Assembly: GCA_003514055.1 (NCBI GenBank)
Contig: DOSG01000008.1
Span: 45,895 to 109,894, forward strand
DNA from: Candidatus Yanofskybacteria bacterium
Lineage (GTDB): Bacteria; Patescibacteriota; Minisyncoccia; 2-02-FULL-40-12; GWA2-44-9
Reading direction: 5' to 3'
Length of the DNA stretch: 64,000 bases
Part shown: positions 1,232 to 53,171 of the stretch, in pieces
Layout of the letters: the number at the start of each line of letters is the position of its first letter
How positions within the stretch are numbered: the first letter of the stretch is position 1
Made by a program: the position numbers and the translations under genes
Notes under the pieces: model-generated
Told to the model about the DNA's origin: nothing
The model's input: only the letters and a program-made list of their open reading frames with translations
The model's database searches: none

Positions 1232-2506
1232 TTATCTTAACAATTCCAAAGCCTTGTCGAGCTGAGGATCTTTCCCTTTCTCGCCTATAACCAATGCTTC
1301 GAGTTCTTTTGGATCTTCCGGCAACATAACCTTGATATCGGCTTCAATCCCTTTTTCAGAAATCGATATACCATTAGGTGTCAGCCATTTGGCAATCGTA
1401 ACTTTTAACGATGAGCCGTCGGAAAAGTTTTCCAATTCTTGGACAGAACCCTTTCCAAACGACTTTTCGCCTACTAATTTTATTCCTCTATTATCATGCA
1501 GTGCTCCGGCTAAGATTTCTGATGCCGACGCTGATCCGCCATTCATCAATATCACCGTAGGTAATTTGAGCAAGCCGTTACCATTACTCTTGAATTCGTT
1601 TCTCGTACCATCGCCGAACTGCTCCATGACTACAATCTGACCTCTATTTAAGAACCACCCGGCCATATTTATGGCAGAATCCAACAACCCACCCGGATTA
1701 TTTCTCAAATCCAAGATTAGCCTAGTAGCCCCACTCTTTATTATATCTTGTGCTGCCTTGTTGAATTCAGATTCAACATTCTGATTGAAGGAGTATATCT
1801 GCATGTAGGCGATTTTATTACTACCCTCTTCAAAATATTTCAGATCGACTGTCGGAATCTTGATCGTATCTCTCGTTAATTCATAATCTCTTAATTCTCC
1901 ATTGGAAATCGACAATATAACTTTAGTTCCTTTCTTGCCACGAATCAAGTTTACCGCTTCATCCACGGACATTTCTTGGGTGCTTTTACCATTAATCTTA
2001 ACAACTTTATCTCCAGCTTTTATCCCAGCCTTATCGGCGGGAGTGCCTTTTAATGGAGAAACGACGGTTAAAACATTATTCTTTTTACTCAACTCTAGAC
2101 CAACACCGCCGAAAGATCCAGATATTTCTTCCTGGAATTTTTTGCTTTCAACAGGTTCAAAGAACGTAGTATAAGGATCTCCGGCGCTGTTCACCATACC
2201 CGCTATAGCACCGTAAAACATTTTTTCGTTACTAAGTTCACCCTTATCTACGTATTTCTCGTTTAATTTGTCCCACACCTGCCAAAAGAGTTCAAAATCA
2301 ATGTCTTTGTACTTAACCGCATCCTTATTTATCAGCCTAGCTACAACCGGTGAAGGTTCGTATTGGCCAATAAAATAACCGACTGCTAAGCCGATTAATA
2401 AGACGCCAACAAGCACTACTAAGCGCCACTTCGATTTAGTCCTAGATGCTTCTGGTTGTAATATTTGATTTTCTGATTCCATATTTTTTAAAATATTTGA
2501 TAGCAT
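1232..2506 (-). CDS. ctpA: carboxyl-terminal processing protease, S41 family with PDZ domain
   Basis: N-terminal TM; PDZ (GIKAGDKVVKINGKS); S41 catalytic block GGSASASEILAGAL and KGSVQ. Confidence 0.9.
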   Translation of the reverse strand: MLSNILKNMESENQILQPEASRTKSKWRLVVLVGVLLIGLAVGYFIGQYEPSPVVARLINKDAVKYKDIDFELFWQVWDKLNEKYVDKGELSNEKMFYGAIAGMVNSAGDPYTTFFEPVESKKFQEEISGSFGGVGLELSKKNNVLTVVSPLKGTPADKAGIKAGDKVVKINGKSTQEMSVDEAVNLIRGKKGTKVILSISNGELRDYELTRDTIKIPTVDLKYFEEGSNKIAYMQIYSFNQNVESEFNKAAQDIIKSGATRLILDLRNNPGGLLDSAINMAGWFLNRGQIVVMEQFGDGTRNEFKSNGNGLLKLPTVILMNGGSASASEILAGALHDNRGIKLVGEKSFGKGSVQELENFSDGSSLKVTIAKWLTPNGISISEKGIEADIKVMLPEDPKELEALVIGEKGKDPQLDKALELLR

Positions 2507-3260
2507 CTTTTATGTGCCATCTGGTTTCTTTTTTGAATAAAGCATCAAAGACATCGAAGCGACTCTTCGAACCTCTACGATGATAGTGATACATTTTAGA
2601 TTTAGGATAATAAATTACTCTGTATCCATTTTCCCAGAAGCGACGCGCCCAGTCAACATCACTCATATAGAGAAATAGATTTTCGTCCATTGAGCCAACT
2701 TTTTTTATAGCTTTTTTACTAACCATGATTGCTGAGCCCATCAACCAATCGGCATCAGTTTCTTTGAACAGATCGTGATCGTGCATTAAGAACTGCTCAA
2801 CTTCTTTTTTAAATAATCCTATTCTGCCGATAAAACTTCGACGATATATGGTAGTTAGTGGCGAATAGAATCTAAAGTATGAATCCTGATGACTGCCGTC
2901 AAAATTTAATAATTCCGGGCCGACTATGCCAATTTTAGGATCATCTTTAATCAATTCATACAAAGTCTCTACTGCACCTTCAAGCGGAATTATATCGGGA
3001 TTGATTACAAATACGTAATCGTTAACGCTGGCCTGAAGGCCAGCGTTAACGCCTTTGGTATAACCGATATTCTGGTCGAATGCCACTAATTTTATATCCT
3101 TAAACTCTTCATTGACGACATTCCGGGTCTCTATACTGCTGGCGATATCGATAACTATGATTTCGTATTTAAAATCTGCGCGAACAATACGTTTAAAAGA
3201 TTTCAAACACAGTCGTAATAGCGCCGGATTCTTATAATTGATGACGAGTATCGAAAGCAT
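2442..3260 (-). CDS. glycosyltransferase family 2
   Basis: N-terminal ILVINYKN...IIVIDIASS GT-A signature; start overlaps the LCP stop (TAATG coupling); its 3' end overlaps the ctpA start by about 40-65 nt. Confidence 0.85.
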   Translation of the reverse strand: MLSILVINYKNPALLRLCLKSFKRIVRADFKYEIIVIDIASSIETRNVVNEEFKDIKLVAFDQNIGYTKGVNAGLQASVNDYVFVINPDIIPLEGAVETLYELIKDDPKIGIVGPELLNFDGSHQDSYFRFYSPLTTIYRRSFIGRIGLFKKEVEQFLMHDHDLFKETDADWLMGSAIMVSKKAIKKVGSMDENLFLYMSDVDWARRFWENGYRVIYYPKSKMYHYHRRGSKSRFDVFDALFKKETRWHIKDAIKYFKKYGIRKSNITTRSI

Positions 3261-4300
3261 TAATTTAAAGTTTCAGCGAAAAACTTTTTAAATAAATCGA
3301 AATTCTCGCCATTTGGAAGTAACACGTAAATTGCATCGATGTATGTTTGATAAAGTAAATTCGCGGTGGAAATTACATATTCTTTGGGCATAGCCTTTTT
3401 CACTTGTTGATACAAGTTTATTAATTCCGACAAATTCCAAATATTCAAATCTGTTTTAATGTCGCTGCGAACGACACTTAGCATGCCAAAAGCTTTAAGA
3501 GGATCTGAGGTCAAATTAGCAGTCATGACTTTGTCTTTAATAGCCATTATAATTTCCTGTTGACGCCTAGACCTATCGAAATCGCTAGTTGAATACCTCG
3601 ATCGAGCGTAATAGAGCGCACCTTCACCATCGAGATGATTGAGCCCAGCCGGCAGATAGAAGCTATTCCCCCACTGGCTCTTCTCTTCAAATGGTTTGTC
3701 TAGGTATACGTCCACCCCATCTAGCTCGTCAACAATTTTCTTGAACGCTGTAAAATCAAAGACTATGGCATTATCTATATATATTCCAGTCATTATCGAA
3801 AATACTCTCTTTGTAAAATCTAGCCCCTCTTTGCGACTAAGTCCATATTCATAAACTTCGTTTATCTTGCCCATCTTGTACTTGTCGATTTTTATGTAAA
3901 GATCTCGTGGGATAGACACCAACGATGACTTTGCGGTGGTCTTGTCGTAACTAAAAAGCAAGATCGTGTCGGTTAACATACCGCCTTGAATCGCGTCCGG
4001 ATCGTCGAGACCACGCATGCCTAATATTAAGATGTCTAAACGATTTGGGTCAGGCTTTGGTGTCGGATCGGTAGATATTGCGGCTACCGGAAATGACAAA
4101 ATGGCCGAGACACGATTCCAGAAAGGAACACTACCATCACTGGTAATGACAATCTCGTTATAAGCTAAGCCCAACATTAAAGCTCCGTAGCTCAAGGCTA
4201 CTATGGCTATAATTGAAACGCCTAGACCAAGTATCTTCTTCTTACTTGGCTGATTATTATGTCCTACGGGGTCTATAAAATTCATTTCTTTATTATTCAT
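3260..4300 (-). CDS. LytR-CpsA-Psr (LCP) family cell-envelope glycopolymer ligase
   Basis: N-terminal TM, then LILGMRG...DTILLFSYD...SIPRDLY LCP-domain motifs. Confidence 0.85.
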   Translation of the reverse strand: MNNKEMNFIDPVGHNNQPSKKKILGLGVSIIAIVALSYGALMLGLAYNEIVITSDGSVPFWNRVSAILSFPVAAISTDPTPKPDPNRLDILILGMRGLDDPDAIQGGMLTDTILLFSYDKTTAKSSLVSIPRDLYIKIDKYKMGKINEVYEYGLSRKEGLDFTKRVFSIMTGIYIDNAIVFDFTAFKKIVDELDGVDVYLDKPFEEKSQWGNSFYLPAGLNHLDGEGALYYARSRYSTSDFDRSRRQQEIIMAIKDKVMTANLTSDPLKAFGMLSVVRSDIKTDLNIWNLSELINLYQQVKKAMPKEYVISTANLLYQTYIDAIYVLLPNGENFDLFKKFFAETLN

Positions 4301-5357
4301 ACCATTCGCGCATTCGAGCTGGCGCGGCTACAGCTCGTCTCATAATGGCATTTCTCTTCTTGAGCATTTTAGGAATATTTTTTAATACCACGCTAACCTC
4401 GCTTAAAACGGCTGGCTCATAGATAAGGAGGTAGGCCAGCATGGTTAATTCTCTTTTCGCTATATAAAAGAAGTCCTTGAGGCAATTTATTATATACTCA
4501 TTCTTGATCATTGTAAACCTAAGATTTTTCCATTCAAGCCGGCGCTTATTGAGCGGTATCTGCTGTCTACTTTTTCTGAATTCGGTGAAACCGCCAGACA
4601 ACGATTTTGTTGTCTGGCGATCATGCCAAGCCAAAACTCGTGGAGCATATATCTGCTTCCAGCCGAATAGGTTCATGCGCCACGCAATATCTAAATCCTC
4701 GGCATACCAAAAAAAATCGTGATCGAATATCTCTCCGGCACCTGACGGATTGATTTTGATTCTTAAACTAGCAAACGCTTCCTTTCTAAAAACAGGCACC
4801 GCACCTTCAACGCCGAATATCTCTTTCTGCGTGTTGTATTGGCCCGTGTCTTTCTCGCCATGGCCGATATTAACTATCCTCCTCGATTTGAATATTTTAA
4901 AACCACATGTGTCTATGACGTCGGTACCCAGCCTAAGATTACGACCTTTCAGCTGGTCCAAATCAAATCGGTAGACTTTGGCCTGAAGTGCACCAATATC
5001 GGCGCTTACTTCCATGACCCCCATCGCTTCAAGTAGAAAATTCTTATCTAATATCACGTCTACGGAAAGCACGACCACATATTTCCCAGCTGATATTTCA
5101 AACAACTTTTCCTGCCCAGCCCACATGCCTATGTTTTGTGAATTTTCAATAACTTGAGAATTCACAAAAGCTAATTCTCCAAGTTCTAATTGCCAGTCTT
5201 TGATTATTTTCTTTGTTCCATCGGTTGAATTATTATCCCAGATATTTAGCTCAATTAGATCATGCGGATAGTTCAAGTTCTTTATCGAATCCAAACAATG
5301 GCGAATATATTTTTCGCCATTAAAAACCACTAGATTTATTGAGATTCTACTTGACAT
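4293..5357 (-). CDS. glycosyltransferase family 2
   Basis: INLVVFNGEKYI...DNNSTDGT GT-A N-terminus; 8-nt overlap with the LCP start. Confidence 0.85.
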   Translation of the reverse strand: MSSRISINLVVFNGEKYIRHCLDSIKNLNYPHDLIELNIWDNNSTDGTKKIIKDWQLELGELAFVNSQVIENSQNIGMWAGQEKLFEISAGKYVVVLSVDVILDKNFLLEAMGVMEVSADIGALQAKVYRFDLDQLKGRNLRLGTDVIDTCGFKIFKSRRIVNIGHGEKDTGQYNTQKEIFGVEGAVPVFRKEAFASLRIKINPSGAGEIFDHDFFWYAEDLDIAWRMNLFGWKQIYAPRVLAWHDRQTTKSLSGGFTEFRKSRQQIPLNKRRLEWKNLRFTMIKNEYIINCLKDFFYIAKRELTMLAYLLIYEPAVLSEVSVVLKNIPKMLKKRNAIMRRAVAAPARMREWYE

Positions 5358-5411: not shown

Positions 5412-5723
5412 ATGGATGAGCTTACTCCAAGCCAAGAAATTATAAAGAACGATTTAATCGCACATTTCAAAGAAGACGCGACATCGTCACTGAATCAAGT
5501 AGTCAATTTTCTTGGTCAAAAGCAAACTTGGTATTGCATAAATTTCGACCATAGATATCTCAACTTTGCCAAGCAAGACATGATAATGGTGCTAAAATAT
5601 TTGATAGCCCAGAGTATATTGGAAATATCCGATTGGAGGACATCTCCCGATATGAATGCTACATTTGGATTTGTGCTGGAACCAGTTTTTTCTCTTTCCG
5701 AAACATTTCAAGCCCAGGCTTAG
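5412..5723 (+). CDS. hypothetical protein (103 aa)
   Basis: ORF track only; weak RBS; convergent 4-nt overlap with the Wzy-like gene. Confidence 0.3.
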   Translation: MDELTPSQEIIKNDLIAHFKEDATSSLNQVVNFLGQKQTWYCINFDHRYLNFAKQDMIMVLKYLIAQSILEISDWRTSPDMNATFGFVLEPVFSLSETFQAQA

Positions 5724-7285
5724 TCTGGGCCTTTGTTTACCAAAAGAGCGGCAGAAACGGCAAGCATAAGAAAGGCGCGTTCGTCGAATATAGCTACGTC
5801 AGTCATTAAGTAAGCGAAGACCCACGGAATGAATAATAGACTTGCACCATAATAAGTTGCCAGCGTGGTGTCCGCCTTAGAATCGATGAATTTTCTATAG
5901 ATTATTTTGAATAACTCAAACAAGAATGCACATAGCGCAATCAGGGCAAAAACGCCCATCTCCGCGGCTACGTGCAAATAAATATTATGCGCCGAAGATC
6001 CAGCCTTAGACAGTTTAATATCTTGAGACAACACGACTGGATAATTACCAATACCCACTCCCAACAATGGATGGTCCGCTATAGATACTAAACTTTTTTT
6101 CCAGATTTCTATTCTTTGAGCGTTAGAAGTCTCACCAAAATCTATGACTGATCTAATTCGATTACCAAGCATGCTCCAATCCCCTTTTGATAATAAAAAT
6201 TGAGGCGAAGTAAATATCGGATAGGCAACAAAGAACATCATAAAAAACAAAATTATGTAGCTAGAAATGAATTTAAAATAACTCACCTTAGTTTCTTTCT
6301 TAATCGTCATATAGATAATCACGCCGATAGCAAGCGCAACCACTCCCACACTCGCCGCCCAGAAACCTCTGGTGCCAGTTAAAATTACTGCTAGGAATAT
6401 TATCGGCACCCAAACCACGAATAGCTTAGTCCTTGTTTTAATCAAATCTTGGAATTTCGCACCAACATCCATTTTGCGCATAGTCCAAGCAAAAATAGCT
6501 GGCATACCCAGAAGCAGAAATATTGGGAAAGAATGAGAATCTGGAAAAAGAGAAAACATCCTCAACGAAAGTTGCTCTCCGTAGTAAGCGAACCAAGTAT
6601 TACCAACCCTCACGGCAATATCGCACCATTGCTGACCAAACTGATTGCATTGGATGTTCTCACCCCATATGCGCATGAATTGATAAATATCAATAAAGTA
6701 ACTTGAGGCCAATTGTAAAAAACCAATAATCGTAACTAGTAAAACCGGAATCGTTAAGGCTCGAATTAGTCGCTTCGAAAAATCGCTACTTCTCGTGGTT
6801 AGATAGTAAACTGGAAAGCCAACCAAGCTTAAATTAGTAAAATAGATAATTCTTTTGATAGCGGCCGCCTTATCCGAAGCCATGGACACTGAAAGTAACA
6901 TCAGCGCATAAAGTGCAACGAGAGCCATTGCGTACAAAGGGCGCCATTGTACAAAGGCGCCCTTTGTAAAGATTTTCGTGGTTTTAAGCCGGGACAAAAA
7001 CCATTTCACGAATAATATGACTGAGAATATCCTCCAAGAATTAAAGTTATCAAAGCTAGAACTGAATGGAATCGCCAAAAACATCGGGATTGAGGCCGCA
7101 AAAAATATTACTCCATCCTCCAGCGGTGCTAAGATCAAATACAAAGCTAACATGGCCACTAAATATAAAACGAATTCGCGAGGTATAAGACCAGAAATAA
7201 CCAGAAAGAAGCAGATAACCTCAGCCACGTAAACTATTCCGCCAGTTTTTTTATTATTTAACATTCTCAAAAAATGATTTAGCAA
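5720..7285 (-). CDS. O-antigen ligase/Wzy-like polytopic membrane protein
   Basis: More than 10 predicted TM helices; SSAHNIYLHVAAEMG motif typical of the Wzy_C / O-antigen ligase family. Confidence 0.75.
   Translation of the reverse strand: MLNHFLRMLNNKKTGGIVYVAEVICFFLVISGLIPREFVLYLVAMLALYLILAPLEDGVIFFAASIPMFLAIPFSSSFDNFNSWRIFSVILFVKWFLSRLKTTKIFTKGAFVQWRPLYAMALVALYALMLLSVSMASDKAAAIKRIIYFTNLSLVGFPVYYLTTRSSDFSKRLIRALTIPVLLVTIIGFLQLASSYFIDIYQFMRIWGENIQCNQFGQQWCDIAVRVGNTWFAYYGEQLSLRMFSLFPDSHSFPIFLLLGMPAIFAWTMRKMDVGAKFQDLIKTRTKLFVVWVPIIFLAVILTGTRGFWAASVGVVALAIGVIIYMTIKKETKVSYFKFISSYIILFFMMFFVAYPIFTSPQFLLSKGDWSMLGNRIRSVIDFGETSNAQRIEIWKKSLVSIADHPLLGVGIGNYPVVLSQDIKLSKAGSSAHNIYLHVAAEMGVFALIALCAFLFELFKIIYRKFIDSKADTTLATYYGASLLFIPWVFAYLMTDVAIFDERAFLMLAVSAALLVNKGPD
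6933..6969. repeat. GC-rich palindromic mini-element, in frame inside the Wzy-like CDS
   Basis: TACAAAGGGCGCC-ATTGTACAAA-GGCGCCCTTTGTAA. 12-bp perfect stem. Translated in frame as TKGAFVQWRPLY. Confidence 0.6.
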
Positions 7286-8666: not shown

Positions 8667-9608
8667 TTAATTTCCTATTTTGCCCATTTTATCTTTATAA
8701 AAATCGAATACTCCGTTTAGTATTGCCTGCGACCTTTCTTTTTCGATACCAAATATCAATTTGATTATCTGCTTTTTAATAATCCAGATGCTCCAGGGCC
8801 ACAATAATATTTGCACCCACCACGGACCAAATTTACGATTGAAATAAAGAGCGTTACGGTAATGATATCTCAACAGTAACGGAGACCCTAATTTTTTGGT
8901 TGAGGCCGATACCTTATGATTAATAGATACTCCTTCGGCTATGCCGATTGAAAACCCGGCTTGAGCCGCAGTCAATGATAAGTCGGCATCTTCAAAGTAC
9001 AGAAAATAGTCCTCATCCATTAGGCCAATCTTTTCAAACACATCACTAGATATGGCCGCGCCACCACCGATGGCGTAGATATTAGAAACACAATGGCCGC
9101 GTTGAATACAATGGCTGTCTTTTAGGCCGCAAAGACAGCCATTGTATTCAGGCGTATATATGTGTCCGAGGGTAGGCTTTAGCCACTTCACCAAGCCAGC
9201 ATAGGCCGTATGCCCACCCTCATCCAAAGGTATTGAAACTACCCCCCTTTTGAGCCTCAAAACGGCCTTTAGGCGAGCGATAAAGTCCTTTTCAGGTGTT
9301 GTATCGTTATTGATCAAAATCACCCATTTTGACCCTCCGGCCAAGGCCTTTTTTATGCCCACATTACACCCCCCAGAAAAGCCGAGGTTTTGACCATTTT
9401 TAATAACCACCAGGTTCTGCCAACCATGCTTTTTTTGATACTCATTGAGCCTATCTATGTCGGCCACGTTAGAACCATTCTCAACTACAATCAATTCGAA
9501 ATCAGAATCGGTTTGATTCTTAAATATATTTAGAAGATTAATCGTGTCTTCTGCTCCGTTATAATTTACAGTTACTATTGATATCTTCATCTTATCCATT
9601 AATACCAT
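8667..9608 (-). CDS. glycosyltransferase family 2
   Basis: KISIVTVNYNGAEDT...ELIVVENGS GT-A signature. Confidence 0.85.
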   Translation of the reverse strand: MVLMDKMKISIVTVNYNGAEDTINLLNIFKNQTDSDFELIVVENGSNVADIDRLNEYQKKHGWQNLVVIKNGQNLGFSGGCNVGIKKALAGGSKWVILINNDTTPEKDFIARLKAVLRLKRGVVSIPLDEGGHTAYAGLVKWLKPTLGHIYTPEYNGCLCGLKDSHCIQRGHCVSNIYAIGGGAAISSDVFEKIGLMDEDYFLYFEDADLSLTAAQAGFSIGIAEGVSINHKVSASTKKLGSPLLLRYHYRNALYFNRKFGPWWVQILLWPWSIWIIKKQIIKLIFGIEKERSQAILNGVFDFYKDKMGKIGN

Positions 9609-19052: not shown

Positions 19053-21149
19053 CTATTCAAATACTACCTCCATCTTAACCTTGGCTTTGTCTTTAGGTAC
19101 AGTTTTCACCCAAAAAGGCGAGAGACTTACTTTGGCTGAATCGATAACCTTATCGGCCTTGAGCTCCTGCAAGTAATCTCTAACTTGTGAATCCTTTTTG
19201 CCCAGCAAATCGACAAGGATCTTATCAGCATCAATCTTCTTATATTGCATGCCACGGACCATAGTCGTAAACGTTAAGGTGCTGGTTGCGTCATCGTAAG
19301 CTATATTAATGTAACTCTTATCAAGTTTATCCGCCTGCACCGTAGAGGTACCGCCCTTCTCTACATATTTAACTGCTAATTCGTCTATATCTTCCTCTCT
19401 GAAGCCAATAGTTTTAATAAGGCCCGTTAGAGTCATAGTAAAGGTATCGGCTGCCTCATCTACCTGAGCCGTAGATTGTGTGTCTTTAATCACGACATTG
19501 GCCGAATTAATAATCTTTAGATTGGCCGATTGAGATTTCAACGCCTCGGCCACGACTCTTTTAAGCTCTTCCATCAAAACATCTTTAGCCGCTTGATAAT
19601 CCTGATCAGTAACCACCTTAGCCTTACCGCTCGTACCACCCTTCATGGGCTGGACTGACTTACCATATACTTTCTTTAATTTCTCTTGGTCATTCTTCTC
19701 CTTGAAAGCTGATACGATGAAATCAGATGCGGCTATGTTGTATTCGATACCCGGCTTATCAGCTATTACTTCAACTTCCATAGTCCCAGAACTAGATTTG
19801 GCAGCCGGAACAGTTATAGACTTAAGAGTCCTAAAAACTAGACCCTCCTTGGTCTCGAACCTGGTAGTAGCTATTAATTGTTGAGTGACGGCCAAATCAT
19901 TATATACCACAATCTTGCCTCTAGCTTTTTGGGCTACATCTTTTTCTCCAGTAGCGGGAAAAGACTTTGAGGCACTCTTCTCAATATTAAATAATTGCCC
20001 AGGTATTTTGTTGGAGTTCGGATCAACAGATGAATATTTATCAGAAGCTGAAATTTTCAACTCTAATTTTAGTGGATCTTTGGCTGGTACGATCTTAATA
20101 TTGGCGGCACCGCTAACAATATATATAGTCACTAAAAGCACTCCCACCGCAAAAACACCAATGCCCACTATTGCTTTTGACATTCTTTTACCAGAAGGGT
20201 TCCTGTGTTTTGTGTACGAGCCAGCAGACTTATTACTAGATCTAAAAATCCCAGACCAGCTAAATTTTGATTCGGGCTTTCTCTTATCCCAAAGGTGCTC
20301 GCTTTCCCAAACTTCCGTTATCTCGTCCACGTTACCGCCTTTCTTACTATCCGATTCTTTTCTTACCTCAAGCTTTATCGGCTTATAACTGCCACTTTTT
20401 ATCTTTAAATTTTTTATATCTGTATCGGATTGAGATATTATGTCATCCAGATTCTTTCTAGCCATAGCTGTGACGACTTTATAATCATGGTCACTTCCAG
20501 AAAAAGATATTTCTTCGGCCTCTTCATCATCGTCAGTCTTTAGATCTTTATCGTCGAATTCCTCTTCCAACTCTTCAAGGTCTTCCTCTTCTTCAATTTC
20601 TTCTTCGACTTCCTTCTCTAGATCATCCTCTTCCAGCGCATCTTCTTCGATGTCAAGCTTTTTGCCTTTTTTCACGCCTTTATCTTCTTCGACATCTACC
20701 AAATCTTCGTCTAAGTCTTCATCTTCTTCGTGTAACCCACGATCACCTAAATTCTCAGAAACGAAATCTTCGTCATGATATACTTCGGGATTTTCTGGAT
20801 CATCATCATTAATAGAGCTATCATCAACCTGATTGACGGCTAGAATCGCCGACGGTTTTTTTGACCCAGATACCGGTGACAGCAAGATATCGAATTTGTA
20901 GCTCTTAGCCATCTCATTCATTTCTGGATTTGAGCTTAATAAAGATATGGATTTACCATTCTCGTTAGCTTCTTGGCTCAAGGTAGCAAAATTCTCTGGC
21001 CTACTGAAGGCTTTGGCCTTTTTTGGAACTATAAAAATAACTTCCTTGGCGGAAGCTTGCTTAAACAAATTTAATATTTCCTCGAACTTATCATCTTTGA
21101 GTACGTTTATAATCTTTGTCGATGACATATTAACTGAATTATACCACAA
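19053..21149 (-). CDS. large hypothetical membrane protein with an acidic (Asp/Glu-rich) cytoplasmic linker, one TM helix and a roughly 350-aa extracytoplasmic domain
   Basis: EEDLEELEEEFDD low-complexity stretch; TM helix AIVGIGVFAVGVLLVTIYIV. Confidence 0.55.
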   Translation of the reverse strand: MWYNSVNMSSTKIINVLKDDKFEEILNLFKQASAKEVIFIVPKKAKAFSRPENFATLSQEANENGKSISLLSSNPEMNEMAKSYKFDILLSPVSGSKKPSAILAVNQVDDSSINDDDPENPEVYHDEDFVSENLGDRGLHEEDEDLDEDLVDVEEDKGVKKGKKLDIEEDALEEDDLEKEVEEEIEEEEDLEELEEEFDDKDLKTDDDEEAEEISFSGSDHDYKVVTAMARKNLDDIISQSDTDIKNLKIKSGSYKPIKLEVRKESDSKKGGNVDEITEVWESEHLWDKRKPESKFSWSGIFRSSNKSAGSYTKHRNPSGKRMSKAIVGIGVFAVGVLLVTIYIVSGAANIKIVPAKDPLKLELKISASDKYSSVDPNSNKIPGQLFNIEKSASKSFPATGEKDVAQKARGKIVVYNDLAVTQQLIATTRFETKEGLVFRTLKSITVPAAKSSSGTMEVEVIADKPGIEYNIAASDFIVSAFKEKNDQEKLKKVYGKSVQPMKGGTSGKAKVVTDQDYQAAKDVLMEELKRVVAEALKSQSANLKIINSANVVIKDTQSTAQVDEAADTFTMTLTGLIKTIGFREEDIDELAVKYVEKGGTSTVQADKLDKSYINIAYDDATSTLTFTTMVRGMQYKKIDADKILVDLLGKKDSQVRDYLQELKADKVIDSAKVSLSPFWVKTVPKDKAKVKMEVVFE

Positions 21150-28912: not shown

Positions 28913-28958
28913 CCCTGGCGAAGCAAGCAGACAGCTGCTCTTCGCCAGGGCTTTTTTT
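28913..28958 (+). terminator. rho-independent terminator
   Basis: CCCTGGCGAAG-loop-CTTCGCCAGGG-CTTTTTTT. Confidence 0.7.
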
Positions 28959-31900
28959 ATTCCATCATTTTACGTAGCGCACAATATTCGCAGTCTTTTT
29001 CTTTGCATCCCTTATCCCAAAAATCCAGATTCATTATTTCTTGAGATGTTTTAATGACTAATTCTTTAAGTTCTACGACCTCATCGGACGTGACATAGAA
29101 ACTTTCTTTCTTATATCTCCCCTTCTCGTCCGGCTCTATGAAATCAATGTCACCCGATATCATTTTAAATTTCTTGCCTTCAGCATAATTATTCAATAAC
29201 AAATTGTAGAATACCAGCTGTCTTTTTATATCACCATTAGATGTTTGAGTAGTACCCTCAATTTCGCCACGAGTTTTCTGCCTACCAGTTTTATAATCAA
29301 CCACGTTCACCTCTCCCGAGTCATTCAGTATCTCAATTTTATCTATCTTACCAGTAATCCTAACGTCCGCGGCAACGACTATCCCTGGTATGTTGAATTC
29401 ATTCAAAAGATTAGCCCTCCAGTGACCAACGTAATTATCGTAATAACCAGAAAGCGATTTCTCTCCTTTCTGAAGCACTTCTTCAAAATCACTCTCCTTA
29501 AGGGGTTCTCTCTGTAAATATGTGACAAACTTACTCAATAGCATCTCTTTATTAGCTTCGCCTTCCTTGATTTTATCGAAGAAATCTTTGAGCGCACCGT
29601 GAATAGCTGTGCCATACATTTGATGCTTATCTTTGGCTTTTGGTATGCGTAACAGATTAGTATAGAAATACTGCCACGGACATCTTAGATAGTTGTTTAA
29701 GCCCGTAACTGATAACCCATTCTTAGTGAATAAGTCTTTTATGAATTCTTTGTCTTTTATACTTGTTCCAGATTTCACTTTTGGCGTAAACATAATTGTT
29801 CTGTCTCTTTCAAATCCATCTTCATACTCATCGGCAACGACGGTTTCTATGAGATCGGATTTAATCTCCTGGATAAATTGAGATGGTATCTGCTGCTTAC
29901 CGGAAAGTGCTTCCTGGGCATATGTAATTGTCACCAATTTCTTAGCTCGAGTTATGGCCACATAAAATAATCTCCTCTCGTCATCATTTCCATCATCATC
30001 TGCAAGATCCTTATCCTTACAAAGGGCGCCCCTGAGGGGCGCCCTTTGTAACCCAAGAGAATAGACCGAGGCAGGCAAAGACAACAGGTTAGTTCGCCTC
30101 TTATTACCCCAGTGGCCGTCAAAAGCATTCACTATATATACATATTCGAACTCCTGTCCTTTCGATCTGTGGGCGGTCATGAGTCTTATATTCTTTGTGC
30201 CCGATTGGCCTAAACTCTTTTTAATAAGTAGATTATGTATCTGAAGGGTGTCTATATATTTTATAAAATCGCGTAGATCGTAATCTTTGTGTTTCTCCAA
30301 CAATGACTTGATCTCGTTGAATAATCCATCCAATTTTTGCATCTTCTCAGCTACGTCCTTTTCTTTCATTATGTGAGCTAGAAAGCCAGACTCGTTTATC
30401 ATCAACTCGAAGAATTCCGATAAGCCCTGGTTTTTCTGAATCGTAGCCCACCCCGCTACTTTTTTATAGAAATCATGAATTTTATCGGCTGATTCGAGAT
30501 CAATACGCTCAAGATTCTTCTTATGTTTTACAATATCGTGTACGGGAATCTTTTCTTTGTTTGAATAGTTTATGATTTTGTATACGTCCAGCGGATCAAT
30601 ACCTAGAAAATCAATATGCATAGATTCGAGTATCCTAGCCTGAGATCCGAAATTATCCACCAGGCGCATTATCAGCATAAGCTTCTTAATATCGGGATCA
30701 GACAAAATATCCTGATCAGATTCTATAGCAAAAGGCACGTCAACTCTTTCAAGCATATCCGCAAAAGTAAAAACATCTTTATTGTCACGATACAGGATGG
30801 CAATCTCGGACGGCACAACGCCCTTAGAAATTAAATTCTTTATGCTTTTAGCCACGAAATACGCCTCAACTTTTGGCTTTGAAAAGGATAAAAGCCTTAT
30901 CTTTTCCTCTTCGTATCTCATATTAGCTTGTAGTTGCTTATCTCCGGCCAAGATACTATGGGCCGAATCTAGAATATTTTGAGTTGAGCGATAATTATCT
31001 TCCAAGACAATTAGTCTTGCCTTAGGATACAAATTCTTGAAATATAGAAAATTCTCTATAGATGCACCCTGGAATCTGAATATGGCCTGTTTCTCGTCGC
31101 CAACCACGAATATGTTTGGATTAGGATGGAAATTACAGAGTAGCTCCAGAACCTTATTCTGGGCATTATTTGTATCCTGGTGTTCGTCTACTAGCATGTA
31201 CTGGTGTTGCTCCTGCAATATCAATAAAAGATTCTGATTCTGACTGAGTTCTCGCAGAACCTCCATAATCATATCGCTATAGTCATACATCTTATTCTCA
31301 GCCAACTGCTTCTGATAAAATCCGTAGACCACGGCCAACTCCTTATTTTTTCGAATCTGCTTTTCAATTTTCTGATATTCACCCTTCATCTTACCCTTGT
31401 GTGCACCTTTCTCATGATAAAGATCGTCAATCGATGTAAAGTCTTTCTCCTCTTTCTCTACTAGCAGCTTAAATCCTTCCGGGCTAAGACCTTCGCGCTT
31501 AAGATCGTTTAAAGATTTCAAAATTTCTCGCGTGTAATAAAGCGGATCACCGAATGGCTTGAGATCCTTAAGAGGTAGGCCATCGATGGCTTTTTCGATG
31601 ATATTTATCTGATCAACTTCAGTAATATTCTGCGACCCAATGATTGCCGGAAATTCTTCGGGGTAATTTTTAATCACGTCATTGCAAAAACCATGAAAAG
31701 TACTTATCACCACCGAATATCCTGGAGTGCCAATAATCTCGACTAATCGTCTGCGCATTGAAGATACGCCAGATTCTGTGAATGTAAGCGCTAAAATATT
31801 TTCCGGTTCAGTATCGGTCTTCTTTAGTATATTAGCGATGCGCAAAGTCAAAATCTGGGTCTTGCCAGTTCCGGGTCCAGCCACCACCATCACAGGCCCA

Positions 31901-31983
31901 TCAACCGCATCCACGGCCTCCTTCTGAGCCTTATTGAGTTTTTTATATAGCTCCTCGAACTTCGCCATGATTAGATTATACAT
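28957..31983 (-). CDS. UvrD/PcrA-type SF1 helicase fused to a C-terminal Cas4/AddB-like PD-(D/E)xK nuclease with a four-Cys cluster
   Basis: Walker A MVVAGPGTGKTQ; UvrD motifs through about aa 700; C-terminal YLRCPWQYF ... CKEKDCEYC. Confidence 0.85.
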   Translation of the reverse strand: MYNLIMAKFEELYKKLNKAQKEAVDAVDGPVMVVAGPGTGKTQILTLRIANILKKTDTEPENILALTFTESGVSSMRRRLVEIIGTPGYSVVISTFHGFCNDVIKNYPEEFPAIIGSQNITEVDQINIIEKAIDGLPLKDLKPFGDPLYYTREILKSLNDLKREGLSPEGFKLLVEKEEKDFTSIDDLYHEKGAHKGKMKGEYQKIEKQIRKNKELAVVYGFYQKQLAENKMYDYSDMIMEVLRELSQNQNLLLILQEQHQYMLVDEHQDTNNAQNKVLELLCNFHPNPNIFVVGDEKQAIFRFQGASIENFLYFKNLYPKARLIVLEDNYRSTQNILDSAHSILAGDKQLQANMRYEEEKIRLLSFSKPKVEAYFVAKSIKNLISKGVVPSEIAILYRDNKDVFTFADMLERVDVPFAIESDQDILSDPDIKKLMLIMRLVDNFGSQARILESMHIDFLGIDPLDVYKIINYSNKEKIPVHDIVKHKKNLERIDLESADKIHDFYKKVAGWATIQKNQGLSEFFELMINESGFLAHIMKEKDVAEKMQKLDGLFNEIKSLLEKHKDYDLRDFIKYIDTLQIHNLLIKKSLGQSGTKNIRLMTAHRSKGQEFEYVYIVNAFDGHWGNKRRTNLLSLPASVYSLGLQRAPLRGALCKDKDLADDDGNDDERRLFYVAITRAKKLVTITYAQEALSGKQQIPSQFIQEIKSDLIETVVADEYEDGFERDRTIMFTPKVKSGTSIKDKEFIKDLFTKNGLSVTGLNNYLRCPWQYFYTNLLRIPKAKDKHQMYGTAIHGALKDFFDKIKEGEANKEMLLSKFVTYLQREPLKESDFEEVLQKGEKSLSGYYDNYVGHWRANLLNEFNIPGIVVAADVRITGKIDKIEILNDSGEVNVVDYKTGRQKTRGEIEGTTQTSNGDIKRQLVFYNLLLNNYAEGKKFKMISGDIDFIEPDEKGRYKKESFYVTSDEVVELKELVIKTSQEIMNLDFWDKGCKEKDCEYCALRKMME
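30017..30051. repeat. GC-rich palindromic mini-element, in frame inside the helicase-nuclease CDS
   Basis: TTACAAAGGGCGCCCC-TGA-GGGGCGCCCTTTGTAA. 14-bp perfect stem. Translated as LQRAPLRGALC. Confidence 0.6.
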
Positions 31984-32016: not shown

Positions 32017-33000
32017 CTATTCGGTCATATTAATAGACGTATCCACTCCGAATTGTTTAAAACTACCTTCCCCAAATGTTCTTTCAATTATTCTTGCTAT
32101 TCTCAATAATCGGCCCGTCATTACAGCTTCTGCAAATAATTTAAACACATCTTCCTCTGAAGAGAATTCATCTGAATTTTTTACATAAATTTCTCTAACC
32201 AGACTACCTAGTTCTTTTCTCTCCTCGCTGTAGGCGTAGCCTTCTCTTAGCTTGATAGATGGGCCATCTTTTGTTTTGAAATCTCTGACCACGGCCAAGT
32301 CGTCTGCCGCAATCTCACGATTCCCATCTTCTGCAGATTTTTTGGCAATTTCTGATCTTTTTAATTCCCTTTCTTCGTATTCTTTTTTAGTAAGAGCCAG
32401 TCTACCGAAGTATCTTTTATCAAATCTTTTCATCAATTCCTCCGTTATCGCTTCGTTTAAATTATGAAAAAATATTTTATTCTTTTTCTCAGAAAAAATT
32501 TCGAAACCAATTCTTCTAGGCCCGAGAATTACCAATTCTCCTCCGTCGTCTTCGTCTTTCTCGAAGCGAAATTTTTTCCCTCTGCTTGCATTCTGGATAG
32601 ATTGGAAGGAATTAAAATGTAATAGCTCATGCACCACGCGTATCGCGGCTTTGAGATCGCTGTAACTTGAATCTACGAAGATAAAAATGGCCTGAGACTC
32701 AGGGCTGTAGAGTCCATTAAATTCTTGGGTCTTGTCGCTGGCACTTTTAGGAAGATTGTGCCTATCAATCACATGGATATTCTTGGCAGGCACATCGATA
32801 GGCTCTCCTCCATATTCGGAGACAAATTCTCTTAGAAAAGAATTAATCTGTCCCAGAGCTTCGATCCATTCGGGACTTTTAGCTACTTCATAAGACTTAG
32901 TTACGTTGCTATTTAATATATCACCGTACAAGTCCTGAAAAACTTCAGCGTCAGTCCTTAGTACTTTAGATATCCCGGATTTTCTTTCAAATTTATTCAT
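32017..33000 (-). CDS. hypothetical protein with an HExxH motif (possible Zn-dependent peptidase; an ImmA/IrrE-like fold not excluded)
   Basis: VVHELLHFNS at aa 124-128; 33-nt gap to the helicase-nuclease gene suggests co-transcription. Confidence 0.5.
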   Translation of the reverse strand: MNKFERKSGISKVLRTDAEVFQDLYGDILNSNVTKSYEVAKSPEWIEALGQINSFLREFVSEYGGEPIDVPAKNIHVIDRHNLPKSASDKTQEFNGLYSPESQAIFIFVDSSYSDLKAAIRVVHELLHFNSFQSIQNASRGKKFRFEKDEDDGGELVILGPRRIGFEIFSEKKNKIFFHNLNEAITEELMKRFDKRYFGRLALTKKEYEERELKRSEIAKKSAEDGNREIAADDLAVVRDFKTKDGPSIKLREGYAYSEERKELGSLVREIYVKNSDEFSSEEDVFKLFAEAVMTGRLLRIARIIERTFGEGSFKQFGVDTSINMTE

Positions 33001-33123: not shown

Positions 33124-33753
33124 CTAGCCTTTACGCCACTCCCAACACAAGAATCGGCTTTTACGCATGCCAACTGGATAGGGATAATATGAGAACTCCA
33201 CGATCAGTGGTCTAATCCAGTGGAATCTCGTCAATTCGAAAGCGCGGTTTCTCAAAATCTCAGGCACCCATTCTGGCCACGGCTGCTGCAACCTTCTTTG
33301 GGCCGTCTTGAGAGTATCGATATCTCCATGCTCTATGTCTCTACCATAGCCAGATCCAGTCAAATATTCTAACTGCATCTCCACATGCTGGAATGCCTGA
33401 GAGATCCTTATCGTCCCCTGATAAATATTATCGGCTCGCGGCAACGTTTCATTGAATAAAGAAAAATAATTAGGGTTAGTTTCTTTAACGAAGCCGACTA
33501 TCGCATCCCAATCTTTCTGCTCTGGCTTAAATGGTCCGCGACCCTTATCATCTGCTCTAAATGTTCGACAGGAGATTAATCCACCACGCTCATCGAAAAA
33601 CTTTCTCAATTGATCGAAATCAATCCCTCCTGGAGGAAAAGCGATGTAATTCGGGATATTCTGACCAAACTCAAAAAGCTGCCACATACGATGATGCTTG
33701 AGAGGATATTCCAATTCTTGTCCAACCGAGACAATGTTAGATAGAGCCGCCAT
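33124..33753 (-). CDS. hypothetical protein (209 aa)
   Basis: ORF track; Trp/aromatic-rich; no family recognised. Confidence 0.5.
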   Translation of the reverse strand: MAALSNIVSVGQELEYPLKHHRMWQLFEFGQNIPNYIAFPPGGIDFDQLRKFFDERGGLISCRTFRADDKGRGPFKPEQKDWDAIVGFVKETNPNYFSLFNETLPRADNIYQGTIRISQAFQHVEMQLEYLTGSGYGRDIEHGDIDTLKTAQRRLQQPWPEWVPEILRNRAFELTRFHWIRPLIVEFSYYPYPVGMRKSRFLCWEWRKG

Positions 33754-52076: not shown

Positions 52077-53171
52077 TCACTTTATTACTCCTCCGCCAAG
52101 AAGAAGTTGTCCCCTGTAAAAAACTGCCGACTGGCCCGAAGTTATAGCTCTAACTGGTTTATCGAATTCTAAATTACCATCATCAGATAAAATGGCTTTT
52201 TCCGATTTAGTTCTGTATCTTATTTTAACGTCAATTCGTGCTGGTAATTTAATTGGACCATTGACCCAGCTGAGATTGCTCACGACCGTCTTCGTTGACT
52301 TGAGATCTTTCTCGCTTCCAACGTAAATAATATTTTTCTCTACGTCTTTTCCGATTACATAAAATGGACCATCTCCAGATTTAATATCTAACCCATGACG
52401 CTGGCCGATAGTATAGTAGAAAACACCATCGTGAGTTCCAATGGCTTGGCCATCTTTTATTATCTCGCCTTTTTTCGATTTTATTCTTTTCAGCAAGAAA
52501 TCTTTCACGTTTAATGGTCCGATGAAACAGACTCCTTGGCTATCCTTCTTCCCCGCATTCGGCAATTTAAATTTTTTGGCTAGTTTCCTTATTTCTGGCT
52601 TAGTATATCCTCCCACCGGGAATAAGCACCTTTCTATCTCTTTTTCTTTCAGAGTCCATAAAAAATAAGACTGGTCCTTGTTCTTATCTTTGCCCTGATA
52701 AAGATAAGAACCGCAAGAAACAAAGGGCGCCTTTTTGGCCCCAAAGGCGCCCTTTGTGATTTTTCTTACATAGTGTCCGGTAGCGATGAAATCCGCGCCC
52801 TCACTCAATGCTCTTTTCAAGAATAAGCCGAATTTAATCTCCTTGTTGCACATTACGTCAGGATTCGGAGTCCGACCAAGCTTATATTCTCTGATCATGT
52901 AATCGGCAACTTGTTTTTTATATTCCTTAGTAAAATCCCAGGTCTTAAATGGTATATTCAGACTAGCCGCGGCCTTCGCGGCTTCTTCGCGTTCTTCTTT
53001 CCATATACAAAAATCACCGACATCGGGTTGCCATTGTTTCATAAAAACTCCGACCACTTTATGGCCTTCTTGCTTGAGCAGTGCCGCAGCCACAGAACTA
53101 TCCACTCCACCGCTCATGGCCACATAAACCAGCTTTTTGTTGTTCTCTGCTAATCTTGACATAATAGTCAA
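52077..53171 (-). CDS. mnmA: tRNA 2-thiouridine(34) synthase MnmA
   Basis: PP-loop VAMSGGVDSSV; KDQSYFL motif. Confidence 0.9.
   Translation of the reverse strand: MTIMSRLAENNKKLVYVAMSGGVDSSVAAALLKQEGHKVVGVFMKQWQPDVGDFCIWKEEREEAAKAAASLNIPFKTWDFTKEYKKQVADYMIREYKLGRTPNPDVMCNKEIKFGLFLKRALSEGADFIATGHYVRKITKGAFGAKKAPFVSCGSYLYQGKDKNKDQSYFLWTLKEKEIERCLFPVGGYTKPEIRKLAKKFKLPNAGKKDSQGVCFIGPLNVKDFLLKRIKSKKGEIIKDGQAIGTHDGVFYYTIGQRHGLDIKSGDGPFYVIGKDVEKNIIYVGSEKDLKSTKTVVSNLSWVNGPIKLPARIDVKIRYRTKSEKAILSDDGNLEFDKPVRAITSGQSAVFYRGQLLLGGGVIK
52719..52757. repeat. GC-rich palindromic mini-element, in frame inside mnmA
   Basis: AACAAAGGGCGCC-TTTTTGGCCCCAAA-GGCGCCCTTTGT, translated as ITKGAFGAKKAPFV. Confidence 0.6.

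Follow-up and report, generated by a model that had tools for sequence, protein, structure and literature searches.

The O-antigen-ligase-like gene of a Candidatus Yanofskybacteria genome (Patescibacteria/CPR; a tiny bacterium from groundwater) contains, in frame, one copy of a small family of short palindromes that occur in several genes of essential type, and the two arms of this palindrome change together among orthologs. Other members of the family are inserted in three further genes, and perfect palindromes are in excess in coding regions across the lineage. On balance, we think it likely that the palindrome is a tolerated, probably selfish element resembling the Rickettsia palindromic elements, and that template switching preserves the identity of its arms at the DNA level. 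All positions are those of the window, the whole 64-kb stretch of DNA that was analysed.

The palindrome and its host gene

The palindrome lies inside a gene on the minus strand:

5720..7285, minus strand: Wzy_C / O-antigen-ligase-like polytopic membrane protein, 521 aa from a TTG start; host of the palindrome
6933..6968, no strand assigned: Wzy palindrome, 36 bases, with arms at 6933-6945 and 6956-6968 and a loop at 6946-6955

The arms, TACAAAGGGCGCC (6933-6945) and GGCGCCCTTTGTA (6956-6968), pair to form a perfect 13-bp stem around the 10-nt loop ATTGTACAAA. The original prediction had this loop right but counted a stem of 12 bp, and it placed the right end at 6969, a base that falls outside the palindrome. 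A repeat search describes the same element alternatively as 18+18 nt, 94% complementary, with a spacer of 0 and a single T·T mismatch. Folded as RNA (101 nt), the hairpin has a free energy of -34.1 kcal/mol, with z = -3.96 relative to shuffles. The sequence is identical in an independent JGI contig (L001).

The product of the host ORF matches Wzy_C (PF04932, E 7e-20), and the palindrome encodes residues 106-117 of the protein. As had been predicted, the palindrome is read in frame: the minus-strand ORF yields F-TKGAFVQWRPLY across it, and the coding strand of the palindrome, ACAAAGGGCGCCTTTGTACAATGGCGCCCTTTGT, is translated as TKGAFVQWRPL. An AlphaFold2 model of the protein places a coil at residues 101-116 between helices 83-100 and 117-135, with pLDDT <50 at residues 106-114; this topology agrees with the earlier claim that the palindrome occupies a loop of a polytopic membrane protein. 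By itself, the Wzy copy has a small practical consequence, namely a 12-residue loop segment without evident function.

An imperfect direct repeat overlaps the palindrome:

6925..6957, no strand assigned: imperfect direct repeat, GCCATTGCGTACAAAGG (6925-6941) and GCCATTGTACAAAGG (6943-6957)

These strings had been read as a near-tandem duplication that signals rearrangement at the insertion site. The strings do exist; TRF scored no tandem repeat at 6880-7010. Clear evidence for rearrangement does not emerge from them, given the periodicity of the underlying unit. The unit of which the palindrome is composed, TACAAAGG-GCG-CCTTTGTA (~17 nt), comes close to being a palindrome in its own right; the palindrome has two dyad centres 8 nt apart and therefore a direct periodicity of ~16-19 nt. 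On the coding strand, a partial third unit (TACgcAATGGC) lies 3′ of the palindrome, and the direct repeat is a consequence of the nearly palindromic unit plus this partial third one. Because the third unit is confined to the window lineage, some local slippage or duplication is possible, though not proven.

Sister copies, relatives and other coding palindromes

A search with the 13-mer of the arm, allowing at most one mismatch, returned seven occurrences in the window (0.07 expected), all of them arms of four palindromes. The four loci, with arms ACAAAGGGCGCC...GGCGCCCTTTGT, are the Wzy gene, the MnmA gene, a UvrD/PD-(D/E)XK helicase gene and one intergenic site; together with a variant in a GT2 gene, this gives a copy number of four copies and one variant, which refers to the 64-kb window only. 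The Wzy palindrome had been taken for one copy of a repeated palindromic element, and sister copies with the same arms, listed here together with the GT2 variant, bear this out:

52720..52757, no strand assigned (gene 52077..53171, minus strand): MnmA sister copy, ACAAAGGGCGCCTTT-ggggccaa-AAAGGCGCCCTTTGT, translated as TKGAFGAKKAPFV
30017..30051, no strand assigned (gene 28957..31983, minus strand): helicase sister copy, TTACAAAGGGCGCCCCT-c-AGGGGCGCCCTTTGTAA
1183..1220, no strand assigned: intergenic sister copy with degenerate arms, ATTACAAAGAGCGCCC-cgagaa-GGGCGTTCTTTGTAAT
9103..9150, no strand assigned (gene 8667..9608, minus strand): variant palindrome in the GT2 gene, TGAATACAATGGCTGTCTTT-N8-AAAGACAGCCATTGTATTCA, translated as EYNGCLCGLKDSHCIQ

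The 5′ arm of the MnmA copy is the same as that of the Wzy copy over 16 nt. This copy is an 11-aa insertion when MnmA is set against the solved structures from E. coli and S. pneumoniae, and likewise when it is set against seven Yanofskybacteria orthologs without the insert, whose empty-site DNA was compared; it is found in both the ENA and NCBI assemblies (L208, L209). The helicase copy, which resides in a UvrD/PcrA-like helicase with a PD-(D/E)XK nuclease domain, is translated as (G)LQRAPLRGALC in a different reading frame, and it forms a 12-aa insertion that is missing in 55 of the 58 closest orthologs. Ortholog alignments identify the MnmA and helicase insertion sites as hypervariable insertion hotspots, and comparison of these two sites with empty sites revealed no visible target-site duplication or conserved target. 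The GT2 variant falls exactly within a 17-aa insertion relative to the L003 ortholog, and it has AAAGACAGCCATTG in common with the Wzy palindrome of L003. The intergenic copy lies just downstream of an S41 peptidase gene (1232..2506, minus strand); read on the minus strand, it resembles a terminator.

Copies of the family are 34-40 bp long (11-13 aa), and their loops or spacers vary widely in length (0-10 nt). The modules ACAAAG, GCCATTG and CTTTG[CG]GGCC[AT]AAAAG recur across different genes and genomes. The arm 13-mer search returned no solitary arms (half-sites) in the window, and an uptake-sequence-like motif (DUS/USS) is therefore ruled out. There was no Pfam match to a transposase, RAYT or Y1_Tnp in the scanned window ORFs or in the precomputed annotations (64 kb plus flanks). 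Rfam searches of the whole window at gathering thresholds returned four tRNAs only, with no match at the palindromes.

Related elements also occur in other species, at sites that are not orthologous. In L206, MnmA contains two tandem palindromes, variants A and B; L130 has ACAAAGGGCATCTTTG/CAAAGATGCCCTTTGT within another gene; and L218 has an intergenic perfect palindrome of 40 nt with the same TTACAAAGG...TTTGTACAAA...CCTTTGTAA architecture. In metagenome contigs, the stem ACAAAGGGCGCC N0-20 GGCGCCCTTTGT occurs more than 120 times among the matches listed, nearly all of which are from unrelated, mostly high-GC bacteria, at gene ends and with 2-6-nt loops. This stem is a generic terminator-like hairpin, and the metagenome matches are therefore uninformative about the family.

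The other coding palindromes of these genomes have sequences unrelated to the family. In 1.15 Mb of ORF from Yanofskybacteria loci, we counted 50 perfect hairpins (stem ≥12, loop ≤12) deep within long ORFs, compared with a mean of 1.15 in 20 codon permutations; ORF-internal perfect palindromes are thus ~40-fold over-represented across these loci. An E. coli control of 200 kb contained no truly genic perfect hairpin. The GT2 and GT4 genes of many species have palindromes at orthologous sites with differing letters, and at 3020-3051 the window holds a palindrome formed in situ without any indel, a 15-bp perfect stem in which both arms are rewritten relative to L002 and L003. On the coding strand of imperfect genic hairpins, we counted 20 G·U and 23 A·C mismatches, a weak test in which some chance hairpins are included. 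A literature search for palindromes in CPR coding regions returned nothing specific.

Covariation at the Wzy site and proposed maintenance of the arms

In each of the five other sequenced orthologs with 64-70% identity, a palindrome occupies the very codons that it occupies in the window, though its letters differ through compensatory changes. According to the original prediction, conservation of the segment in orthologs that lack the palindrome elsewhere would have spoken against it; the conservation is partial, with the segment present at ≥64% identity and absent at ≤60%. Judged from the same-codon palindromes in the 64-70% orthologs, the Wzy copy is not a recent insertion into the window genome. 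We also scanned a genome collection, whose representatives do not include the clade of the window genome, with the Wzy alignment; the 80 Yanofskybacteria/Paceibacterota loci retrieved are all at ≤58% identity and served as negative controls and for the lineage-wide statistics. The variants of L002 and L003 occur at the Wzy site only, within the 13-21 kb available around each ortholog.

To measure covariation, we compared the six ortholog DNAs at the Wzy site. In the alignment, 95% of the cells are paired; double changes affect 5 of the 17 pairs, one-sided changes number 0, and slid controls also gave 0. Outside the central dinucleotide, none of the 85 cells holds a G·U intermediate. This dinucleotide changes symmetrically (GCGC to GTAC) where hairpin pairing is impossible, and a symmetric change at an unpairable centre points to DNA dyad symmetry. 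In three orthologs (L135, L138 and L157), the conserved ILFLK coding segment forms one arm of a Wzy palindrome. Covariation alone cannot separate arm conversion from selection for structure, and usefulness could explain equally well why the palindrome persists across ~35% protein divergence.

In the explanation that we favour, the element is a GC-rich inverted repeat of 34-36 bp, a dimer of a ~17-20-nt unit TACAAAGG-N3-CCTTTGTA. It may have entered the permissive, basic and poorly conserved Wzy loop in the ancestor of a small Yanofskybacteria clade, and it would have been translated ever since. Because the family is present at other sites here and in relatives, we infer that the element is mobile and that copies arise at new places, possibly via copy-and-insert or templated insertion; the survivors would be only stop-free, frame-preserving insertions in tolerant loops. 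The failure to find a transposase in the 64 kb plus flanks, or a target-site duplication at the helicase and MnmA sites, speaks against this explanation, as does the restriction of the L002 and L003 variants to the Wzy site in the 13-21 kb available. Arm identity would be maintained by replication template switching (conversion between quasi-palindrome arms) and not by selection for an mRNA hairpin, and such DNA-level conversion would make substitutions appear as compensated pairs. The host most likely gains nothing from a presumably functionless element, which would persist since it is seldom deleted precisely and arm conversion mends its decay.

The covariation could instead arise from RNA-level selection in the coding region, with arms that co-vary because a functional mRNA hairpin is needed, for example for ribosome pausing during transmembrane helix insertion, for RNase protection or as a conditional intragenic attenuator. 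The stable fold (z = -3.96), the 95% pairing with strong covariation over six orthologs, the location between two transmembrane helices and the same-site palindromes in GT2 and GT4 genes of many species are all consistent with such a hairpin. However, the same arms are inserted in two unrelated soluble proteins, MnmA and the helicase; the symmetry crosses a centre that is unpairable in RNA and that nevertheless co-varies; G·U intermediates are missing from the 85 cells, the central dinucleotide aside; and the coding strand shows G·U and A·C mismatches at equal frequency. In addition, neither the Wzy nor the helicase copy resembles a terminator when read in the sense direction, and orthologs at ≤60% identity manage without the palindrome. 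We consider an mRNA role unlikely, and the covariation here probably does not mean functional RNA structure. The symmetric centre would also suit a functional DNA site, a dyad bound or recognised by a dimeric protein or structure-specific enzyme (a regulator, a nucleoid/segregation factor, a restriction-modification system or a recombinase), for which coding status would be irrelevant and specificity would drift between species. The dyad symmetry is perfect at the DNA level, centre included; each genome has its own letters (GGGCGCC in the window, GGCTGCC in L002, GACGGCC in L212); the same arms are found at four loci; and GGCGCC is over-represented in the window (17 observed versus about 5 expected), in part because of the palindromic elements themselves. 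Such a site is quite improbable given a density of only four copies in 64 kb, spacers of 0-10 nt that a fixed dimer site would not tolerate, the nonexistence of solitary half-sites, and the unrelated sequences of the other coding palindromes, which suggest a sequence-independent process.

A purely local origin would place an inverted duplication or a template switch inside the Wzy loop itself, and the likeness to the other copies would be convergent, towards a terminator-like sequence of a generic kind. Palindromes do form in situ in the window genome, as the 15-bp perfect stem at 3020-3051 illustrates, the ILFLK segment serves as one palindrome arm in L135, L138 and L157, and the ACAAAGGGCGCC/GGCGCCCTTTGT stem is common at gene ends of unrelated bacteria (the >120 metagenome matches listed). 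Yet local copying cannot give identical 13-17-nt arms at four unlinked loci, and it leaves unexplained the modules common to different genes and genomes (ACAAAG, GCCATTG, CTTTG[CG]GGCC[AT]AAAAG); moreover, in MnmA, the helicase and GT2 the copies truly lengthen the protein. We give this origin little credence. Some amplification methods are known to produce inverted chimeras, and the sequence is metagenome-assembled, but a chimeric inverted join is refuted by the identical sequence in independent JGI, ENA and NCBI assemblies; the reading frame is kept and orthologous palindromes exist in five other species, making an artefact of assembly or amplification almost inconceivable.

Odd insertions and variable lengths are a known feature of CPR/Patescibacteria proteins, even where the genes are otherwise conserved. 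With a tolerated palindrome whose arms are repaired by template switching, the Wzy locus would provide a concrete DNA-level source for some of these insertions: short palindromes would insert in frame where a loop tolerates them and, with their arms kept the same, would withstand decay. The ~40-fold excess of intragenic palindromes and the covariation at orthologous sites may reflect a peculiarity of replication or repair in reduced genomes. If so, this bears on protein diversification, on how gene callers and aligners treat such segments, and on whether covariation in coding regions always means functional RNA structure; if the hairpins are functional instead, they represent a new class of intragenic signal. 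More tentatively, a DNA-level drive of unusual strength might operate in Yanofskybacteria and perhaps other CPR, one by which perfect coding palindromes are created, spread and perpetually repaired; dispersed families of mini-palindromes in protein loops would be among its products. It would parallel, in bacteria, the coding palindromes of nematomorph mitochondria, might result from a smaller set of palindrome-suppressing nucleases, and would be a significant source of loop insertions and protein-length variation in such tiny genomes.

Comparison with known palindromic repeats

The Rickettsia palindromic elements (RPEs) are repeated palindromic elements that are found between genes and in frame within conserved protein genes, where they encode a tolerated loop peptide, and they are thought to be selfish. 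They were reportedly described by Ogata et al. in 2000. Discussions of RPEs are found in PMC6649704 and PMC10969869. Like RPEs, the palindrome described here is repeated at unlinked loci, both intergenic and genic, its insertions in conserved genes preserve the frame, the encoded peptide is tolerated in a loop or at the surface, and no transposase lies beside the copies. Unlike RPEs, it is 34-40 bp long rather than ~100-150 bp, and its host belongs to the Patescibacteria. The arms of RPEs decay over time (discussed in PMC6649704), whereas the arms here stay perfect and co-vary. The element works like an RPE and is not a member of the RPE-1 to RPE-8 families, from which it is set apart by its length.

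Nematomorph mitochondrial genes contain perfect coding inverted repeats of up to 284 bp that are actively maintained; these are in strong excess, are gained and lost between species, and show a binary (perfect) identity that suggests active arm conversion (PMC6649704). The Yanofskybacteria palindromes are likewise perfect inverted repeats in translated genes, with both arms coding and in strong excess, and they share the gains and losses between species and the binary identity pattern. In contrast to the nematomorph palindromes, which are organellar and form no dispersed sequence family, they are bacterial, have stems of 12-20 bp and include at least one family present at several loci. The features expected of arm conversion are also found here, specifically perfect or near-perfect translated arms, an excess over a codon-preserving null and paired changes at orthologous sites.

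Template switching of this type is the subject of the Ripley/Lovett quasipalindrome model. In Proteobacteria, the perfect short inverted repeats that template switching maintains occur in excess and are retained at orthologous sites, and correction of imperfect arms to perfect ones leads to multinucleotide ‘compensatory’ changes (Lavi et al. 2018, PMC5941160). The palindromes described here share this over-abundance, conservation at orthologous sites and pattern of compensatory change. The Proteobacteria work concerns mostly short inverted repeats, and it includes neither in-frame insertions of a repeated element in protein loops nor coverage of CPR.

REP and REPIN sequences lie outside genes, have a GTAG or CGTC tag at one end and require a RAYT gene (PMC3116915, PMC3733652). 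The present family resembles them as a set of GC-rich 20-40-bp palindromes that are repeated in the genome and often terminator-like if intergenic. Unlike REPs, three of its four copies are intragenic, and its ends are TTACAAAG...CTTTGTAA in place of the tag. No RAYT gene was seen in the 64-kb window and flanks. A MITE was also considered and rejected: the whole element is an inverted repeat, with no terminal repeats around an internal segment (34-40 bp versus ~100-400 bp), and shows no target-site duplication relative to the empty helicase and MnmA sites.

With their A-tract, GC-rich stem and T-tract, the copies are built like intrinsic terminators, and unrelated bacteria often have this very stem at the ends of genes. 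Unlike a terminator, the Wzy copy lies within an ORF, is translated and has a poor U-tract (UUUGUAC). A terminator scan called neither the Wzy nor the helicase copy, which led us to reject an intragenic terminator. The same scan called the MnmA copy on the antisense strand only and the intergenic copy at 1194-1209; this intergenic copy (1183-1220) and the copy in L218 occupy terminator-type positions.

The palindrome and its host protein

The element occupies positions 6933-6968 of the window, where the arms TACAAAGGGCGCC (6933-6945) and GGCGCCCTTTGTA (6956-6968) pair perfectly around a 10-nt loop, ATTGTACAAA; a repeat finder reports the same site as 18+18 nt with no spacer and 94% complementarity. 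The palindrome is confirmed with the loop originally described, but its stem has 13 bp instead of the 12 first counted, and base 6969 is not part of it; the interpretation placed on the palindrome is partly supported. Independent assemblies from JGI, ENA and NCBI contain the same sequence, which rules out an assembly artefact. The names of homologs, together with an MnmA of 100% identity, identify the organism as Candidatus Yanofskybacteria (Patescibacteria/CPR), and the window has a G+C content of ~41%.

Host gene
5720..7285, minus strand: Wzy_C (PF04932, E 7e-20)

Translation of this ORF reads the element as TKGAFVQWRPLY, which bears out the in-frame reading. An AlphaFold2 model with 36 homologs as input (pTM 0.85) has a helix at residues 83-100, coil at 101-116 and a helix at 117-135, with pLDDT <50 at residues 106-114. 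In this model the palindrome-encoded peptide lies in a short loop joining two membrane helices, in agreement with the loop location in a polytopic membrane protein that was first predicted. Because the loop contains five K/R and no acidic residues, the positive-inside rule places it probably in the cytoplasm.

Two ~17-nt units, each almost palindromic, make up the element as a dimer, TACAAAGG-GCG-CCTTTGTA followed by TACAATGG-CGC-CCTTTGTA. Its dyad centres lie 8 nt apart, so a direct periodicity of ~16-19 nt is inevitable; this explains the near-tandem duplication that the original prediction had read as suggesting local rearrangement, and TRF calls no repeat there. A partial third unit (TACgcAATGGC) follows the element in the window lineage only, and thus some slippage is possible. 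The same architecture forms a perfect 40-nt intergenic palindrome, CTTACAAAGGTGCCCTTTGTACAAAGGGCACCTTTGTAAG, in a related species (locus L218, 2511-2550), where it immediately follows a stop codon and separates convergent genes; a related form lies inside a gene in locus L130.

Age and covariation of the Wzy copy

All five other Wzy orthologs with 64-70% identity carry a palindrome at the same codons, but in different letters.

Wzy palindromes in the window and related loci
Window: ACAAAGGGCGCCTTTGTACAATGGCGCCCTTTGT
L210: ACGAAGGCTGCCATTGCGCAATGGCAGCCTTCGT
L002 and L211: ACAAAGGCTGCC...GGCAGCCTTTGT
L212: ACGAAGACGGCCATTGTGCAATGGCCGTCTTCGT
L003: decaying version, three mismatches

Across the 17 dyad pairs counted in these orthologs, 95% of cells are paired; five pairs show double-sided changes and none a one-sided change, whereas slid partner columns give no double changes. 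The shared position means that this copy is not recent, contrary to the recent insertion first proposed, an idea that does hold for the family. In 80 more distant Wzy orthologs (<=58% identity) the loop lacks any such palindrome and bears no relation in sequence or length.

Three Wzy orthologs (L135, L138 and L157) contain an unrelated palindrome, AATACTATTTTTGAA-N7-TTCAAAAATAGTATT. Its 5′ arm, AATACTATTTTTGAA, encodes the conserved transmembrane segment ILFLK, and its 3′ arm resembles this functional coding sequence copied in inverted orientation. Elsewhere in the protein, at residues ~355-363, the window has AYPIFTSPQ and the JGI ortholog of 98% identity (P0001, locus L001) has AITKHAPIP, after which identity resumes; this looks like a compensated frameshift pair or a sequencing difference.

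A dispersed family and a lineage-wide excess

With one mismatch allowed, the window contains seven matches to the 13-mer arm (0.07 expected), and all seven are arms of four palindromes, which supports reading the Wzy site as a copy of a repeated palindromic element.

Family palindromes
1183-1220: intergenic
6933-6968: Wzy
30017-30051: UvrD/PD-(D/E)XK helicase
52720-52757: MnmA

The copies inside genes are read in two different frames, as TKGAF in Wzy and MnmA and as LQRAPL in the helicase. The consensus ends in TTG TAA, a stop codon in the Wzy frame, where the Wzy copy has TAC instead. Compared with the solved E. coli and S. pneumoniae MnmA structures, window MnmA is longer by 11 residues, TKGAFGAKKAP, which coincide exactly with the palindrome; seven Yanofskybacteria orthologs lack any insert there, and empty-site DNA was compared as well. 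Because other orthologs hold unrelated inserts of 10-45 aa at this point, it is an insertion hotspot. The closest ortholog (locus L206, 82-88% identity) has two tandem palindromes there, AAAGGGCGCCTTT-N8-AAAGGCGCCCTTT and ACAAAGACTGTCTTT-N8-AAAGACAGTCTTTGT. Of the 58 closest helicase orthologs, 55 lack the 36 nt encoding GLQRAPLRGALC and three have other, longer inserts at that point. A variant palindrome in a GT2 glycosyltransferase gene (9103-9150, AAAGACAGCCATTG...) coincides exactly with a 17-aa insertion relative to the L003 ortholog.

Several further features were seen in MnmA. At the hotspot in L206 (1577-1648) the variants GGGCGCC and GACAGTC are arranged head to tail, and the loop GCGGCCAA resembles those of the window MnmA copy (GGGGCCAA) and GT2 copy (GCGGCCTA). 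A second perfect hairpin, GTTCTTATCTTT-N8-AAAGATAAGAAC (52680-52711), lies 8 nt from the family copy and belongs to the conserved segment YLYQGKDKN; it is not an insertion. Ortholog lengths range from 331 to 437 aa owing to three insertion hotspots. Many such inserts are low-complexity peptides (e.g. QFPISNFQF, EIGNWKL) that match two strands of (AATTTTC)/(CAATTTC)-type heptanucleotide repeats, frequent in Yanofskybacteria loci and absent from the window.

In 1.47 Mb of Yanofskybacteria loci (L126-L205, L002, L003, L206 and the window), long ORFs contain 50 perfect hairpins (stem >=12, loop <=12) at a depth of at least 25 codons; permuting the codons of these ORFs twenty times gave a mean of 1.15. 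Applied to 200 kb of E. coli K-12, this procedure returned two matches, both actually intergenic. Many of the 50 have no spacer and reach 40 nt, and several have counterparts at orthologous sites whose letters differ in a compensatory way. The significance of the element comes mainly from this excess and the covariation, less from the single Wzy copy.

GT2 palindromes in the window
5134-5169 (gene 4293..5357, minus strand): 16-bp stem, one mismatch; encodes FVNSQVIENSQN, directly upstream of NIGMW
3020-3051 (gene 2442..3260, minus strand): 15-bp perfect stem CGTTAACGCTGGCCT-ga-AGGCCAGCGTTAACG; encodes GVNAGLQASVN

The site directly before the conserved N-[IL]-G-M-W motif carries palindromes in eight species, the window at 5134-5169 and seven others whose palindromes are perfect and differ in sequence; the site has no palindrome in L002 or L003. 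A GT4 site, 'EHSNILENVGMS', is a second orthologous site with palindromes of different letters.

Origin and maintenance

On the best-supported account, a permissive loop tolerates this mini-palindrome, which is probably selfish and belongs to a small dispersed family. A DNA-level conversion process, template switching from one quasi-palindrome arm to the other, would keep the element's arms identical; such switching has been documented in bacterial inverted repeats (PMC5941160) and put forward for the coding palindromes of nematomorph mitochondria (PMC6649704). From sequence comparisons we infer that the family is mobile, because identical arms occur at unlinked loci, because clean insertions differ in age (helicase copy in this species only, MnmA copy also in the nearest relative, Wzy copy in the whole clade) and because other species carry related elements at sites that are not orthologous. 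Neither the window ORFs scanned nor the precomputed annotations showed a transposase, and no target duplication is visible at the helicase or MnmA site against empty-site DNA.

A selected mRNA hairpin, a DNA recognition site and a purely local origin each explain part of the data. The RNA minimum-energy fold does contain the Wzy hairpin (z = -3.96 versus shuffles); the central dinucleotide also changes symmetrically (GCGC to GTAC), though it is unable to pair in a hairpin. In imperfect genic hairpins, G·U-type mismatches on the coding strand (20) are about as frequent as A·C-type (23), and this weak test therefore gives no sign of mRNA-fold selection. As to local origin, the GT2 palindrome at 3020-3051 looks, from its sequence, to have arisen in place: alignment with orthologs shows no indel, the window lineage has changes in both arms with most residues retained, and L002 and L003 lack the palindrome (3-4 of 16 pairs).

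The element is akin to two known kinds of sequence, in-frame palindromes like the Rickettsia palindromic element and conversion-maintained coding palindromes. Like the Rickettsia element it is a repeated palindrome in frame in loops, but it is only about one-quarter as large and shows no decay of the arms. REP/REPIN identity is ruled out, since the element is intragenic, lacks the GTAG/CGTC tag and no RAYT was seen in the DNA examined; a MITE was likewise rejected. A terminator scan rejected the Wzy copy, but intergenic relatives occupy terminator positions, and terminator-like hairpins with exactly this stem are common in unrelated bacteria. In the literature we found no description of such in-frame coding palindromes for CPR bacteria.

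Elsewhere in the window, sizeable ORFs at 19053..21149 (698 aa), 32017..33000 and 33124..33753 and several small ORFs match no Pfam family at E 0.001 or better. GGCGCC occurs 17 times against ~5 expected, six of them inside palindromes. GC skew is negative almost throughout and the minus strand holds most long ORFs, which suggests a single replichore.
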